Shown here piece after piece: positions 57,684 through 63,953 of a DNA stretch of 64,000 nucleotides (position 1 is the stretch's first letter; each line of letters begins with the position of its first letter). Under the pieces are notes generated by a model. That model saw only the letters and a list, made by a program, of their open reading frames with translations, had not been told where the DNA came from and made no database searches. Position numbers and translations under genes: made by a program. This DNA comes from Gammaproteobacteria bacterium (GTDB lineage Bacteria; Pseudomonadota; Gammaproteobacteria; GCA-002705445; GCA-002716945). The stretch is from contig JBJKYD010000010.1 in assembly GCA_045561295.1 (NCBI GenBank), positions 1-64,000 of the forward strand, in the 5' to 3' direction.

Positions 57684-58610
57684 ATGATGATAGAATCCAT
57701 ATCTATCTTGTTAATAGGACTAGCACTATTATTAATAGGATCTAATCTTTTAGTCGCATCAACTGATAATGCTTCTAAGCGTTTTTCGATATCTGGCTTT
57801 TATGCAAGTTTCTTTATGATTGGTATAGCAACATCAGCACCTGAAATTTTTATATCAATCGAATCAGCTCTTCAAGATAAAACAATTTTAGCAATAGGAA
57901 ATGCCCTTGGTTCAAATATCTCAAACATAGCTTTAGTATTTTGTATTTCTCTTTTTTTTATTAAAGGAGATTTGATAAAAGAGAATCTTCCTATAAGGCC
58001 CTATGCGAGTATGATCATATTGACTATTTCAGCTTTCGTATTAATGTTTTTTGATGAACGTCTTGATATAAAAGACTCTTTAATATTGATTGTACTACTA
58101 ATATTATGCGTGAATTTTTTTCAACCTCCAGAGGACAAAAAGCCTGCTGATAACAAAGGGAGCGCTAGTTTATCAAATATAATTTTTTATCTATTACTAA
58201 GTTTAGCGATGTTAATATTTGGATCAACCTACTTCATAAATGGTGCAACTCAAATTGCAACAGCTCTAGGTGTAAGCGCATACGTAATTGGTCTTACGTT
58301 AGCCGCATTAGGGACAAGTTTACCTGAACTTGCTGCTAGTATTCAATCTGCAAGAAAAGGGAAATTTGATTTTATAATTGGAAATATTATTGGCTCAAAT
58401 CTCTTTAATATTGCAATAGCTATGTCGATTGCTGGGATAATCAGCTCTTCACATATAGAATCTGACGCTCTTGTAAGAGATATCATGATGCTTGGATTGT
58501 CAACATTAGTTCTCTACCTTATTATTCAATCAAATAGTATGTTTAGAACTGTATATTCAGTGGCATTAGTAATAACATACTTTTTATACTTAACGTTAAT
58601 TTTAAAATGA
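57684..58610 (+). CDS. Ca2+/Na+ antiporter family protein (YrbG-like)
   Basis: Alpha repeats ATSAPE/GNALGSN and GTSLPE/GNIIGSN; upstream of kdsD. Confidence 0.9.
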   Translation: MMIESISILLIGLALLLIGSNLLVASTDNASKRFSISGFYASFFMIGIATSAPEIFISIESALQDKTILAIGNALGSNISNIALVFCISLFFIKGDLIKENLPIRPYASMIILTISAFVLMFFDERLDIKDSLILIVLLILCVNFFQPPEDKKPADNKGSASLSNIIFYLLLSLAMLIFGSTYFINGATQIATALGVSAYVIGLTLAALGTSLPELAASIQSARKGKFDFIIGNIIGSNLFNIAIAMSIAGIISSSHIESDALVRDIMMLGLSTLVLYLIIQSNSMFRTVYSVALVITYFLYLTLILK

Positions 58611-59575
58611 TAATGAAAAATAAATCTAATATTAGCCTTGCAACAGAAATTATTAAAACTGAGATAACAGCCCTAACAAGGACTTTGAAAAGGATTGATT
58701 CAAGCTTTGATAGAGCATGTGAATTGATTAAAAAGAACTCAGGAAAAGTAGTTACAATAGGTCTTGGTAAGTCAGGATATATTGCTATGAAAATGGCTGC
58801 CACGTTAAGTAGTACTGGAACTCCGTCGATTTTTATACATGCTACAGAGGCTCTTCATGGTGACATGGGTGTTATAAATTCAAATGATATAATTATATTT
58901 TATTCCAATTCTGGAGATACTGAAGAAATAGTTAAGCTTGTGCCTTTGCTAAAAGTTCTCAAATGCAAAATAATTTCAATCACAGGTAATAAAAAATCAC
59001 AGCTAGCAAAATATTCAGATTTGGTTCTAGATGCCTCTGTTACCAAAGAAGCCTGTCCAAATAACCTAGCCCCAACATCGAGTGTTATGTGTGCACTAGC
59101 TATTTCTGATGCCTTAGCTCTGACAGTCTCATCAAAAAAGAATTTTACAATGAAAGATTTCGCCAAGACTCATCCAGAGGGTTCTCTTGGTAAAAGATTA
59201 TTAAAAAATGTTCAAGACATAATGATCAAGAAAAATATTCCTAAAATAAATATAGATGTAAGCTTCTCTGAGCTTATCAATATGACTACAGAATATAATT
59301 TAGGAATTGCTTTAATTATAAATAAAGAAAAAAAATTAGTAGGAGTAATAACTGATGGCGATATAAAAAGAATAATGAATGCTCATAAGAATATTGATGA
59401 GATTCTAGTCAAGAATGTAATGACAAGAAAGCCTTTACATGTAAGTAGTGATATCCTCGCAGCTGAAGCATTATCAGTTCTCGAGAAAAATAATATTAGC
59501 GTATTGCCTGTAATAGATAAATCGGCAATTAAAGGTATCATTACCATGCAAGATCTAATTAAATCTATTAACTAA
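58607..59575 (+). CDS. kdsD: Arabinose-5-phosphate isomerase (SIS plus CBS)
   Basis: GLGKSG, EALHGDMG, SNSG, EACPNNLAPTSS, HPEGSLG. Confidence 0.95.
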   Translation: MIMKNKSNISLATEIIKTEITALTRTLKRIDSSFDRACELIKKNSGKVVTIGLGKSGYIAMKMAATLSSTGTPSIFIHATEALHGDMGVINSNDIIIFYSNSGDTEEIVKLVPLLKVLKCKIISITGNKKSQLAKYSDLVLDASVTKEACPNNLAPTSSVMCALAISDALALTVSSKKNFTMKDFAKTHPEGSLGKRLLKNVQDIMIKKNIPKINIDVSFSELINMTTEYNLGIALIINKEKKLVGVITDGDIKRIMNAHKNIDEILVKNVMTRKPLHVSSDILAAEALSVLEKNNISVLPVIDKSAIKGIITMQDLIKSIN

Positions 59576-59576
59576 A

Positions 59577-60122
59577 ATGATTAACAAGTCAACATATATA
59601 AAATTAGCAGAGAAATTATACACAGATAAGCTTATTGATAAGGCTAGTAAGATAGAATTGCTAGCATTTGATGTAGATGGTGTTCTTACAGATGGCGGGT
59701 TATATTTTGATCATAATGGTAACGAGAGTAAGAGATTTTATGCACAAGATGGACATGGAATAAAAATATTACAATCAATTGATATTGATATAATGATTAT
59801 ATCTGGTCGTTATTCGAAATGTGTAAAAGAAAGAGGAGAAGAACTTGGCATCCAAAGAATTATTCAAGGTAGCAGGGATAAACTAAAATCATTTCATGAA
59901 CATAAAATAAATCTACCAAAAGAAAAGTTATGTTATGTTGGTGATGATACCGTTGACGTTGAACTTCTACAGTTTTGCGGGTTATCGGTAATTGTTCCAA
60001 ATGCTAATCCAATACTGAATCTATTAAATTTTGACTGGGTAACTCCTAGACGAGGAGGAAATGGGGCAATTAGAGATATCTGTGATTTAATATACTTTTC
60101 TAAAATAATTAATGCTCAGTAA
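59577..60122 (+). CDS. kdsC: KDO 8-phosphate phosphatase
   Basis: FDVDGVLTDG, DGHGI, YVGDD, GGNGAIRD. Confidence 0.94.
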   Translation: MINKSTYIKLAEKLYTDKLIDKASKIELLAFDVDGVLTDGGLYFDHNGNESKRFYAQDGHGIKILQSIDIDIMIISGRYSKCVKERGEELGIQRIIQGSRDKLKSFHEHKINLPKEKLCYVGDDTVDVELLQFCGLSVIVPNANPILNLLNFDWVTPRRGGNGAIRDICDLIYFSKIINAQ

Positions 60123-60780
60123 AATTAAAGTCCGGCTTATCTTCTTTATATATCTTCTTTCAAGTACAACTGTTTTTGGGAATTCGTCAGAAAGTAATAT
60201 TTTGATCAAAAATCAATTATATAATTTTTCTACGATAAAAAATAACAAAGATATGACAATTGATTGGGAACTTAAAGGAAGCATGTTGACAAAATACAGC
60301 AATAATATAACCCTAATTGAAAAACCATTTCTCAATATATATAAGACTACATCTACAGTTGATATAAAATCTGATACTGCCATAGATCCATCAGGTAATA
60401 TGGAAGAAATATATTTAAAAGATAATGTATTTATTAATAGAGAATATCTTCTAGATGATATTTCAATGAAGATGTATACATCTTATGCAATTTTCTATGT
60501 ATCAAAAAATTTATTTGAAACTGATCGTGATGTTACAATCATTACTTCTGATTCTACAACGACTGGTTCAGGTTTATCTGCTAACATGGATACTGGCATT
60601 ATCAGAATTTTAAGTAATGCTAAGAGAATAGTAAGAGATAATGATAAGTCTAGAACAATTGAAGGTAATCAAATGATTTATGATGCTAATAAAGAGAAAT
60701 GGACAGTCAAAGATGTAGCTGCAAATAATTTAAAAAAAATAATTACAAAAAAAGTTACTACAACATTTTACGTCAAATAA
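60112..60780 (+). CDS. lptC: LptC-family LPS export protein with an LptA-like C-terminal extension (apparent LptC-LptA chimera)
   Basis: Only gene between kdsC and lptB; residues ~30-168 follow the LptC jellyroll pattern (KPFLNIY, IYLKDNV, ETDRDVTI, GSGLSANM); tail IEGNQMIYD...KKVTTTF resembles the LptA C-terminus. Confidence 0.8.
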   Translation: MLSKIKVRLIFFIYLLSSTTVFGNSSESNILIKNQLYNFSTIKNNKDMTIDWELKGSMLTKYSNNITLIEKPFLNIYKTTSTVDIKSDTAIDPSGNMEEIYLKDNVFINREYLLDDISMKMYTSYAIFYVSKNLFETDRDVTIITSDSTTTGSGLSANMDTGIIRILSNAKRIVRDNDKSRTIEGNQMIYDANKEKWTVKDVAANNLKKIITKKVTTTFYVK

Positions 60781-60781
60781 T

Positions 60782-61507
60782 ATGTCTATTCTTAAATGCA
60801 ATAATCTTGAAAAGAATTATAACACAAAAAAAGTTGTTCAAGATATATCTATAGAGGTTGCTTCCGGAGAAATTATTGGTTTGCTTGGTCCTAATGGAGC
60901 TGGTAAGACAACAACTTTTTACATGATAGTAGGCCTTATAAAATCAGATTTAGGCTCTATAATAATTGATGATGTAGATATTACCTTGGTACCAATTCAT
61001 AAAAGATTTGAATATGGAATTAGTTATTTACCTCAAGAGCCTTCAATCTTCCGCAACATGACCGCACTTGATAATATTAAGGCAATATTAGAGACAGACA
61101 ATAAATTGAGTAAACAGAAAAAGAAAGATATCCTTGATGAACTAATTATTAGGTTTGATCTTAAAAATTTCTTAAATACCCAAGGTATGCAGCTTTCAGG
61201 TGGCGAAAGGAGAAGAGTTGAAATTGCAAGAGCATTAGCCTTAAGACCTAAGTTCCTACTTTTAGATGAGCCCTTTGCAGGAATTGATCCTCTTTCCGTA
61301 ATAGATATTCAGGAAATAATTAAAGAACTGTCGCTAGCTAATATAGGTATCTTAATCACAGATCATAACGTTAGAGAAACCTTAAAAATATGTGATAAAT
61401 CCTATGTAGTAAATACCGGACAAGTACTTGCTTCAGGTAAAACAAAAGATTTGATTAAAAATGAGACTGTCAAAAAGGTATATCTAGGTGAAAAATTTAA
61501 ACTATGA
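60782..61507 (+). CDS. lptB: LPS export ABC transporter ATPase
   Basis: GPNGAGKTT, YLPQEPSIF, LSGGERRR, LLDEPFAG, ITDHNVRET, VYLG. Confidence 0.97.
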   Translation: MSILKCNNLEKNYNTKKVVQDISIEVASGEIIGLLGPNGAGKTTTFYMIVGLIKSDLGSIIIDDVDITLVPIHKRFEYGISYLPQEPSIFRNMTALDNIKAILETDNKLSKQKKKDILDELIIRFDLKNFLNTQGMQLSGGERRRVEIARALALRPKFLLLDEPFAGIDPLSVIDIQEIIKELSLANIGILITDHNVRETLKICDKSYVVNTGQVLASGKTKDLIKNETVKKVYLGEKFKL

Positions 61508-62838
61508 ATAAATTAAAACAATCCATTCACCTAAAACAAAAAAAAATCTTGTCGCACCAGACAAGACAAGCCATTAACATTTTACAACTAAACTCTCTTG
61601 ACCTACACAAAGAAATAGAAAATATTATTCTTGAGAATCCTTTTCTTGAAAAAGAAGTAGATATGGAACCTAGTTATAACTTGGAACATTCTGTTCGATC
61701 TAATAATGCTGATATTGAAGATATATTAAGCTATCACTATGACTCAGATAATTTAAGAGAATATTTAAATAAACAACTTGATACATCCTCATTTTCTGAA
61801 GAAGAAAAAAAAGTAGCTTTAATAATAATTGATTGTGTAGATGATAACGGCTATCTAACTGAAGATTTAAGAGAGATATTCATAGAAGCTAATAGAATAA
61901 GTGAAGTATCTTTTCAAGATATATTCTATATACTTCATACTCTCCAAAGATTTGATCCTGTTGGTACCTGCGCTATTGACCTATGTGACTCGTTAAATAT
62001 TCAGCTAGATCATTACCATAAACAATCAGATTATTATGATAATGCAAAAGATATACTAGATACTCTTAAAGGTGTAGATATTAATGAAAAGTTGAATTTT
62101 GATAGAGTAATCAAATTAATAACTAATGATGAAATTTCTAATGAAAAAACTCTAGCTCTTTTAAAAAGACTTAATCCAAAACCTGGATTAATAATCTCTA
62201 AAAAACTTAATACTTATCATATCTATCCTGATGTAATAATCTTTAAAAGAAATAATCAGTGGATAGTTGAATCAACAAAGAACACTCCTGTTCTCACTAT
62301 GAATAGAGAATATATTTCACTGATGAAAGATAGTAAAATTAAGTCAGATAAGGATTATTTAGAAAAAAACTATAATCAAGCAAAATTTATTATTAAATCT
62401 ATCAGCAATAGAAATATAACCATACTTAATGTATGTAATGAGATATTTAAAAGGCAATCAAAATTTTTAAATGATGGTGATATTGGAATAGTACCAATGA
62501 CTTTAAAAGAAATATCTAATTCTTTAGATGTACATGAATCTACAGTATCAAGGGCCACCAACAATAAATATGTACAAACCCCAAGAGGAGTATATGAACT
62601 TAAGTATTTCTTTTCATCAGAATTAAGCACTAATACTGGTAAAATGGTATCTTCAAAAGCGATAATGAAAATGATTGATGAGATCATTAAAAATGAAGAC
62701 AAAATGAAGCCCTCAAGCGATAGCCAAATTTCAAAATACTTCGAAGATCAAGGAATTTCTGTTGCCAGAAGGACAGTGACGAAGTATAGAGAGAAATTAA
62801 ACATAGAAAAATCAACAGAAAGAAGAGTTAAGAATTGA
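61504..62838 (+). CDS. rpoN: RNA polymerase sigma-54 factor
   Basis: QAINILQL, ENPFLE, HESTVSR, ELKYFF, RpoN box ARRTVTKYRE. Confidence 0.96.
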   Translation: MNKLKQSIHLKQKKILSHQTRQAINILQLNSLDLHKEIENIILENPFLEKEVDMEPSYNLEHSVRSNNADIEDILSYHYDSDNLREYLNKQLDTSSFSEEEKKVALIIIDCVDDNGYLTEDLREIFIEANRISEVSFQDIFYILHTLQRFDPVGTCAIDLCDSLNIQLDHYHKQSDYYDNAKDILDTLKGVDINEKLNFDRVIKLITNDEISNEKTLALLKRLNPKPGLIISKKLNTYHIYPDVIIFKRNNQWIVESTKNTPVLTMNREYISLMKDSKIKSDKDYLEKNYNQAKFIIKSISNRNITILNVCNEIFKRQSKFLNDGDIGIVPMTLKEISNSLDVHESTVSRATNNKYVQTPRGVYELKYFFSSELSTNTGKMVSSKAIMKMIDEIIKNEDKMKPSSDSQISKYFEDQGISVARRTVTKYREKLNIEKSTERRVKN

Positions 62839-62839
62839 A

Positions 62840-63298
62840 ATGATAAACATTAAACTAGATGACTCTCAAATAAGCATAAATGATGATTGTAGAAGTAAAA
62901 AAAGTATATTAGAGAGATTGTCTTTATTATTAAGTAAGTCCTCTGGGATTAGTACTGACGAGATATTTGCTGGTTTATACGAAAGAGAAAAATTAGGATC
63001 TACATCAGTTGGCAATGGCGTAGCTATACCTCATGCAAGAATTAAAGGCATTAATCATCCATTTGTTTCAGTAATTATACTAGATAACCCAATTGACTTT
63101 GATAATATTGATAGCCTTGATGTAGATATTGTTGTTTGTTTAATTGTTCCTACTGAAGAGACAGAAAATCATCTTACTCTGTTGGCATGTTTAAGCGAGA
63201 TTCTTGATAAAATATCAAATAGGAAAAAACTGAGAAGCGCCAGAAATAGCGAAGAAATATTACATTGCTTGGAATCAACTGACTTGATATTTATATAG
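62840..63298 (+). CDS. ptsN: PTS EIIA(Ntr)
   Basis: REKLGSTSVGNGVAIPHAR with phospho-His; downstream of rpoN. Confidence 0.92.
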   Translation: MINIKLDDSQISINDDCRSKKSILERLSLLLSKSSGISTDEIFAGLYEREKLGSTSVGNGVAIPHARIKGINHPFVSVIILDNPIDFDNIDSLDVDIVVCLIVPTEETENHLTLLACLSEILDKISNRKKLRSARNSEEILHCLESTDLIFI

Positions 63299-63679
63299 AT
63301 GAACGTAGGTATATTAATAATTACCCATAGTGACATTGGCAAGCAAATGCTGCTTACTGCGACTTCTGTCTATGGAAATAATCCTTTTCGCGTTGAGTTG
63401 TTATCGGTTGATAATTATGACCAACCGAATGATGTAATCCAACTTGGTCAAAAATATGTCAATTTTTTAGATGAAGGAAAGGGAGTTTTGGTTTTAACAG
63501 ATATAATTGGAACTACTCCATCTAATATTGCTAAATCTATTAAACATCAGAAGATTAGAATTGTAGCAGGATTAAATTTATCAATGATTTTAAATGTTTT
63601 TAACTACCCTAAATATTCCCTTGAAAATCTTGCTGAAAAAGCAATTGAGGGAGGTATTGACGGTATCATGAATCTATAG
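63299..63679 (+). CDS. Stand-alone PTS EIIA, mannose/fructose family
   Basis: ILIITH, LTDIIGTTPSN, GLNLSM. Confidence 0.88.
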   Translation: MNVGILIITHSDIGKQMLLTATSVYGNNPFRVELLSVDNYDQPNDVIQLGQKYVNFLDEGKGVLVLTDIIGTTPSNIAKSIKHQKIRIVAGLNLSMILNVFNYPKYSLENLAEKAIEGGIDGIMNL

Positions 63680-63683
63680 AAAT

Positions 63684-63953
63684 ATGATTACTAAAGATTT
63701 ACATGTGTTAAACAAACTTGGACTTCATGCAAGAGCAGCTGCAAAATTGGTTTTCATAGCAAATAAATTCGTATCTGATATTACTCTTGTAAAAGATGAC
63801 AAACAGGCAGATGCTAGAAGTATTATGAAAATACTCATGCTGTCTGCTTCGAGAGACTCTATTATAAATATTACTGTTGAAGGTAACGATGAAATTCAAG
63901 CAATGAATTCTATAGAAAAACTATTTCAAAATAAATTTGATGAAGATTCATGA
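63684..63953 (+). CDS. ptsH: Phosphocarrier protein HPr/NPr
   Basis: NKLGLHARAA (His15) and DARSIM (Ser46). Confidence 0.92.
   Translation: MITKDLHVLNKLGLHARAAAKLVFIANKFVSDITLVKDDKQADARSIMKILMLSASRDSIINITVEGNDEIQAMNSIEKLFQNKFDEDS

Follow-up and report, generated by a model that had tools for sequence, protein, structure and literature searches.

A candidate LptC–LptA hybrid between kdsC and lptB in a gammaproteobacterial order without a detectable lptA

In the model organisms, all seven proteins of the lipopolysaccharide (LPS) transport (Lpt) machine are essential, and the jellyrolls of its periplasmic bridge join through their edges, the C-terminal one of each to the N-terminal one of the next, in the order LptF-LptC-LptA-LptD; how many LptA units the bridge contains is under debate. 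Here we describe a 222-residue protein that occupies the place of both LptC and LptA in a gammaproteobacterium. Its gene lies at 60112-60780 of the 64,000 nucleotides analysed (the window), which are positions 1 to 64,000 of contig JBJKYD010000010.1 (contig C10 of assembly GCA_045561295.1, hereafter G000; 1.03 Mb, ~31% G+C, 19 contigs). The protein, called the hybrid below, consists of a complete LptC followed by a tail that, as judged by profile comparison, resembles the C-terminus of LptA specifically but weakly, and no separate lptA was detected in the order. We regard it as rather probable that an lptC-lptA fusion produced a bridge protein made of LptC plus the final unit of LptA (~45 residues), which would dock directly on LptD.

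Two known proteins are closest to the hybrid. With LptC (YrbK) of E. coli and other Gammaproteobacteria it shares the position after kdsC, a full jellyroll domain scoring above both family cut-offs, and the fold; it differs in having 51 additional C-terminal residues that are seen in none of 29 LptC proteins, in that no LptA follows it, and, in the window's genus, in a shorter and signal-peptide-like N-terminus. With LptA (YhbN; TIGR03002; structures 2r19 and 2r1a; LptH 4uu4) it shares a C-terminal segment of ~45 residues, alignable through the unit 'xGxxIxYD...V.A...RVxxxI', and a gene that ends right before lptB, and in the window's genus the protein may likewise be soluble and periplasmic. 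It does not have the first ~100 positions of the LptA model, which include the N-terminal edge strand, and its final segment is modelled as a helix.

The closest known system is of laboratory origin. The E. coli lptF(R212G) ΔlptC suppressors are described as using a six-protein bridge, in which LptA links LptF and LptD (Falchi et al. 2022, PMC9972910). As portrayed there, that bridge resembles the present case in working with one periplasmic bridge protein missing, meaning that the bridge tolerates the loss of a module. However, those strains lack LptC, overexpress LptA and depend on a laboratory mutation, whereas here LptA is missing, the arrangement is natural and order-wide, and the remaining protein is a hybrid. 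A full-text literature search gave no account either of LptC and LptA joined naturally in one protein or of an Lpt system that lacks LptA, a statement that refers to abstracts except for the three papers cited in this text.

The gene and its complete LptC domain

From the open reading frame (ORF) coordinates it is clear that a single gene, the hybrid, fills the interval between kdsC and lptB, with an 11-nucleotide overlap upstream and 1 nucleotide separating its end from lptB, exactly as was first described from the letters alone. The features of the locus are as follows.

58607..59575, plus strand: kdsD (arabinose-5-phosphate isomerase; SIS E=1.3e-24, CBS E=6e-19), which heads the conserved cluster
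59577..60122, plus strand: kdsC (KDO-8-phosphate phosphatase type, HAD family; Hydrolase_3 E=2.9e-7), overlapping the hybrid gene by 11 nucleotides and named from its place and length within the conserved cluster
60112..60780, plus strand: hybrid gene, LptC with an LptA-like C-terminal tail (222 residues, ATG start)
60112..60180, plus strand: basic and hydrophobic N-terminal segment of the hybrid (residues 1-23, uncharged run 9-23)
60181..60624, plus strand: LptC beta-jellyroll domain of the hybrid (residues 24-171; PF06835, TIGR04409, hhalign, Foldseek)
60625..60777, plus strand: tail of the hybrid, 51 residues (172-222; weak TIGR03002 match, hhalign against the LptA profile)
60782..61507, plus strand: lptB (LPS exporter ATPase; ABC_tran E=6.2e-34), in the same place in 20 of 20 loci
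61504..62838, plus strand: rpoN (sigma-54; Sigma54 DBD, CBD and AID domains), the usual downstream neighbour

The front of the hybrid is a complete LptC. The Pfam model PF06835 covers residues 24-171 (E=1.6e-18, 67.4 bits against a cut-off of 21), and TIGR04409 matches residues 10-171 with its positions 12-177 of 180 (73.1 bits, cut-off 38), in support of the LptC-like region originally placed at residues ~30-168. An alignment of 20 hybrid sequences, compared by hhalign with a set of 29 LptC proteins that represent other families in the class, aligned over residues 27-172 with an E-value of 1.8e-24 and reached the end of the LptC profile. The sole solved relative found by sequence is also an LptC, chain 9doq_C, which stops six residues past profile position 174. 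The AlphaFold2 model calculated with the same 20 sequences (mean predicted local distance difference test score, pLDDT, 86.5; predicted template modelling score 0.79; residues 1-27 with pLDDT below 50) has as its best Foldseek match the LptC chain 6mit_C (E=4.3e-8), together with 6mjp_C, 3my2 and 9doq_C, while LptA and LptH, and then LptD, rank below these LptC chains. Directly after kdsC, where LptC is expected, the hybrid was found in all 20 loci. By its defining features, the hybrid is a member of the LptC family. NCBIfam also gave a sub-threshold match, of 16 bits against a cut-off of 720, to the model of a Shiga-toxin subunit, which we discarded as noise.

Our sample of the order comprises 37 genomes from six genera, all of one family that makes up the whole order here, and 17 of them are at least 90% complete with no more than 5% contamination. 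At each of the 20 loci, which represent all six genera, a single ORF of 218-264 residues lies between kdsC and lptB, so the original expectation that relatives share the architecture was borne out. The gene is also present in 24 further public records from uncultured (marine) Gammaproteobacteria, and a database search gave 450 homologues, mostly of 222 residues. Among the 120 homologues listed, all carry PF06835 only, and they are named LptC wherever the source gives a name; the entries of 165-175 residues are N-terminally shortened gene calls in which the tail is retained.

The sequencing data also support an intact gene. A DNA contig from run X6, a run with no flag that would mark it as a potential source of the assembly, spans 59763-61038 with two base differences and no indel. 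Contigs from X10 span 60208-60596 and 60567-60822, and RNA-library contigs from X15 (60603-60868) and X16 (60521-60822) cover the gene in part, which is no proof of transcription. The segment 60600-60630, named in the original prediction as the one to check, is crossed by the X6 contig and bridged by contigs from X10, X15 and X16, and no joint or indel was seen over the gene in these four runs. An artefact of assembly or gene calling, for example a collapsed lptC-lptA pair or a frameshift, would have to recur in the 20 loci, the 24 further records and the 450 homologues as well as in the independent X6 contig, and has next to no chance of being the explanation.

Two irregular relatives were seen. 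When fused relatives of greater length were sought, one protein of 450 residues turned up on a single contig, combining an LptC part with 3-hydroxyacyl-CoA dehydrogenase domains; we discount it as a likely chimera of gene calling or assembly. In locus L012 (G010:C5, 2147-2873; genome 69% complete), lptB is split, its two frames (118 and 143 residues) overlapping, as the result of either a frameshift or a sequencing error.

The tail and its likeness to the LptA C-terminus

None of the 29 class LptC proteins carries a comparable extension; they end a few residues past the 'LLSxVRGxY' strand. In the hybrid model the last LptC strand (residues 163-176) is followed by strands at 179-185, 187-191 and 196-200 and by a terminal helix at 205-219. 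The tail is conserved across the family, with a mean pairwise identity of 0.41 compared with 0.49 for the LptC domain and 0.23 for the N-terminus, and Gly185, Tyr190, Trp197, Lys208 and Thr217 are invariant in the 20-sequence alignment.

Since the original prediction held that this tail parallels the LptA C-terminus and proposed that front and tail be scanned separately, the 20 tails (59-65 residues each) were compared in isolation with the full set of 18,950 NCBIfam models. The commonest match was TIGR03002, the LptA model, found with 11 of the 20 (best E=6.2e-4) and always near its end, at positions ~100-140 of 142; the LptC model matched none of the 20. For the window's own tail, TIGR03002 was the sole NCBIfam match (E=0.01, 15.7 bits), with model positions 102-139 of 142 aligned to residues 10-56 of the isolated fragment (hybrid residues 173-219). 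The models can tell the two ends apart: the last 59 residues of the 29 normal LptC proteins matched LptC in 29 of 29 cases and LptA in none, and the last 59 residues of 29 LptA proteins matched LptA in 29 of 29 and LptC in one.

Profile comparison gave the same picture. By hhalign, the tail profile aligned end to end with a 29-sequence LptA profile (score 23.3, P=0.0016), tail positions 17-59 falling on the last ~40 LptA columns, where LptA has the pattern 'fxGxRIxYD...V.A...RVxxvIxP', whereas against the LptC profile the score was 10.6 (P=0.35). Not one of 300 column shuffles of the tail reached 23.3 against the LptA profile (mean 10.2, s.d. 2.3, maximum 19.9), and the reversed tail scored 9.6. 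Placed by this alignment, tail strands 179-191 and 196-200 fall on 141-151 and 156-160 of modelled LptA, a partial agreement in secondary structure.

In genome-wide searches of the order, the sub-threshold TIGR03002 matches are located either on LptD or on the hybrid tail. The tail is hit in 14 of the 37 genomes (10 checked by coordinates, 4 inferred from the frame size), and 13 of these matches align to model positions ~85-140; the fourteenth, in G047, aligns to 7-140 and takes in the whole protein. A protein-atlas search with residues 165-222, which is uncalibrated for parts of proteins and gives a lead only, returned clusters scoring 0.91-0.92, 15 of 30 of which belong to a set with 11% PF03968 carriers.

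Several results weigh against an LptA origin of the tail. The likeness is weak, with 15.7 bits in G000 compared with a family cut-off of 71.7; TIGR03002 is silent on 9 of the 20 isolated tails, and its genome-wide search did not report the tail in G000, G004 or G006. Isolated tails scanned against Pfam gave an Lpt family in 0 of 20 cases, and PF03968 has no match on the G000 hybrid. Neither among PDB sequences nor, at E≤0.001, among 1.84 billion representative proteins did the tail profile find an LptA. Its two PDB matches, one to a D-Ala-D-Ala ligase (E=0.079) and the other to a designed repeat protein, are due to chance, and the 31 matches in the larger set (E≤0.001) are the tail's own family with fragments and seven long repeat proteins of 440-3436 residues, none of them LptA-sized. 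Finally, the last 15 residues of the hybrid are modelled as a helix, while the equivalent LptA segment is modelled as a short strand. The hybrid as a whole is not a member of the LptA family, for it misses the TIGR03002 cut-off, and the N-terminal edge strand and first two thirds of LptA are replaced by LptC.

These results are what one would expect if the tail were a lineage-specific C-terminal extension, namely a duplicated or new jellyroll unit that converged on an LptA-like sequence for pairing with LptD, with lptA lost separately. The LptC and LptA fold is built from shared, repeated strand-pair units, so that short units can look alike, and a similarity of just 13-21 bits, a final helix in place of an LptA-type strand and a profile that finds no LptA in large databases would all suit such convergence. 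Yet the models separate LptC ends from LptA ends without overlap on the LptA side (0 of 29 against 29 of 29), and they put the tail with LptA and in register; moreover, the tail is unlike any part of LptC and adjoins lptB exactly where the 3′ end of lptA lies. We consider convergence unlikely, though far from negligible.

No separate lptA detected

TIGR03002 gave nothing in G000 at E≤10, and across all 37 genomes of the order none of its matches exceeded the cut-off, whereas of 61 genomes sampled evenly across the class, 52 have a match above it (a count that includes the unpublished genome G075). In the 37 genomes PF03968 matched LptD frames of ~900 residues or the hybrid itself, plus three further weak matches. 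Two of these are not LptA: that on G052:C27 is a second, truncated LptD, and that on G051:C6 is a cytochrome c. The third is a 304-residue frame of G001 (E=0.18, locus L097). Hidden Markov models (HMMs) built from our LptA, LptC, hybrid and tail alignments were also run, unfiltered, against all 4119 frames of at least 50 residues in G000, and found only the hybrid and chance matches, the latter being EF-Ts (C2 and C19) and, on C16, the strand opposite an ABC permease gene, which we dismiss as noise. As to a separate lptA, the original reading is supported by TIGR03002 and PF03968 across the 37 genomes and by our own HMMs in G000.

LpxC (PF03331), used as a control on detection, has a match in 33 of the 37 genomes, with the high-quality ones all included (17 of 17). 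It was not found in the G000 assembly, nor in three other incomplete assemblies of the order; given these counts, its absence from G000 is most likely an assembly gap. The remaining parts of the Lpt machine, LptF, LptG, LptE, LptD and LptB, were found, with an LptD jellyroll in G000 that is diverged (PF03968 E=0.007-0.035).

The LptD of G000 (G000:C13:60512-63205, minus strand, locus L001, an 898-residue frame) has an additional feature, as it carries a BamE domain (PF04355, E=1.2e-12) at residues 59-125, ahead of the diverged jellyroll and the barrel. This is the only BamE match in the G000 genome, and the same front end occurs in 12 further LptD sequences of the family. In 60 other genomes of the class (including G075), no BamE match lies in a frame longer than 388 residues, the BamE frames there measuring 98-388 residues.

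Elsewhere in the genome there might nevertheless be a gene for an LptA that has diverged strongly, or for a bridge protein unrelated to it, in which case the tail would adapt LptC to a free periplasmic partner. The G000 assembly is 92% complete (contamination 6.8%), and if the LptD jellyroll has diverged so far, a diverged LptA could have escaped the same model. There is also a precedent, which tells against our preferred reading too: genomes G062, G078 and G096 (loci L087, L086 and L085) have the order kdsC-lptC-lptB with no lptA between, TIGR03002 finds nothing at E≤0.001 anywhere in them, and their LptC is tail-free and of normal length (195-210 residues). The loss of a recognisable lptA is thus no sufficient reason to expect a hybrid, and there may be bridge proteins that escaped detection. 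Against this stand the 37 genomes, 17 of them of high quality, in which neither TIGR03002 nor PF03968 gave a candidate, the failure of both the LptA HMM and the hybrid profile to find one in G000, and the identity of the checked weak matches (an LptD fragment, cytochrome c, EF-Ts and the antisense of an ABC permease). A hidden LptA is, in our judgement, quite improbable.

Two observations on the G000 assembly may be added. The tsf gene (EF-Ts) occurs twice in near-identical form on short contigs (G000:C2:22729-23496, minus strand; G000:C19:17706-18545, plus strand), probably a strain duplication, in line with the contamination estimate. On the 3′ side of rpoN, positions 62840-63953 hold ORFs that by eye resemble ptsN (152 residues), a phosphotransferase system EIIA protein (126 residues) and NPr (89 residues), with no hpf or yhbJ among them, a compacted form of the usual neighbourhood.

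Origin of the hybrid and the bridge it may form

The LptC match ends at residue 171 and the LptA match starts at residue 173, both within the strand 'IRILSNAKRIV', which corresponds to 'LLSxVRGxY' of LptC and to 'LxLxGxAxvxQ' of LptA. A join in the equivalent strand of both models is what a crossover or an in-frame deletion between tandem paralogues would leave. In an ancestor of the order, then, an in-frame deletion or an unequal crossover between lptC and lptA most likely took place at this strand ('LLSxVRG' in LptC, 'LxGxAxh' in LptA). Such an event would have cost lptC its stop codon and LptA its signal peptide, along with about 100 residues at the start of the mature protein, and would have left the 3′ end of lptA and its junction to lptB in place. 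No intermediate forms of the fusion were found, the only longer relative being the 450-residue dehydrogenase fusion described above. Since a complete LptC, an LptA-like tail, the lack of lptA and the shared architecture occur together, an in-frame deletion is the most economical origin. The original prediction of a natural fusion holds in these four respects; the likeness of the tail is nevertheless weak, and the deletion event itself, like docking on LptD and a shortened bridge, is something we infer.

With an lptC-lptA fusion as the starting point, a simple path for LPS can be proposed. The N-terminal edge of the hybrid would bind the jellyroll of LptF/G in the manner of LptC, LPS would move along its hydrophobic groove, and the LptA-derived C-terminal edge would pair directly with LptD, at the strand that opens its periplasmic jellyroll ('TLEIRAD' in G000, ~residue 198). 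LPS would then travel from LptB2FG through the hybrid to LptDE with no free LptA, in a six-gene Lpt machine whose bridge would be ~100 jellyroll residues shorter than LptC plus one LptA; it might also, as originally proposed, have a fixed length and go with a narrow periplasm. In the hybrid model, the C-terminal strand of LptC runs into the extra strands and does not form a free edge, and in 37 of 37 genomes no LptA was found to receive LPS from it. A complex prediction for hybrid residues 28-222 (20 alignment rows) with the LptD jellyroll, residues 185-345 (13 rows), gave no answer (score 0.00, without controls) and is counted neither way.

The N-terminus of the hybrid was judged by inspection of charge, hydrophobic runs and motifs. 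Hybrids of the window's genus begin with basic residues, continue with an uncharged run of 9-21 and then have a motif such as VLA|S, LFA|S or, in G000, VFG|N; the window's own protein has an uncharged run of 15 residues and then NSSESN. This N-terminus looks like a Sec signal peptide, although it may instead be a short membrane anchor. In the five other genera the N-terminus combines an extended basic part in the cytoplasm with a hydrophobic segment of ~20 residues, as LptC anchors ordinarily do, and its uncharged runs of 13-15 continue past one polar residue. The cleavable signal peptide suggested at the outset fits the motifs of the window's genus but does not extend to the other five, which carry typical LptC-like anchors.

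If signal peptidase does free the hybrid in the window's genus, the protein might stack on itself head to tail and so build a bridge of variable length. The single substitution K27A is described as converting the E. coli LptC anchor into a cleaved signal sequence and yielding soluble LptC (PMC9544173), and the tail would supply an LptA-type C-terminal edge, an edge that in LptA is stated to mediate self-association as well (PMC7237710). The five other genera, however, keep a normal anchor. The N-terminal edge of the hybrid is moreover of the LptC type, and LptC is not known to accept an LptA-type edge at that position. Self-stacking in this genus is, to our mind, distinctly unlikely.

Taken together, these observations allow us to sketch a wider picture, tentatively and as something short of probable: a streamlined marine order with a natural six-gene, LptA-less Lpt machine, in which the hybrid would connect LptB2FG to LptD, LptD would carry the only BamE domain, and one genus would have lost the membrane anchor and turned the hybrid into a soluble connector; genome reduction would here have produced, through gene fusion, a minimal bridge whose number of modules is defined. 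For annotation the consequences are practical, since public records give the hybrids no name beyond 'LptC', and a tool that rates the completeness of pathways would count LptA as missing from these genomes. If the fusion is true, the hybrid would represent a natural minimal bridge of defined composition, useful for structural work and reconstitution, and the indispensable part of LptA would be the edge that faces LptD. It would also be an example of how genome streamlining compacts the machines of the cell envelope.

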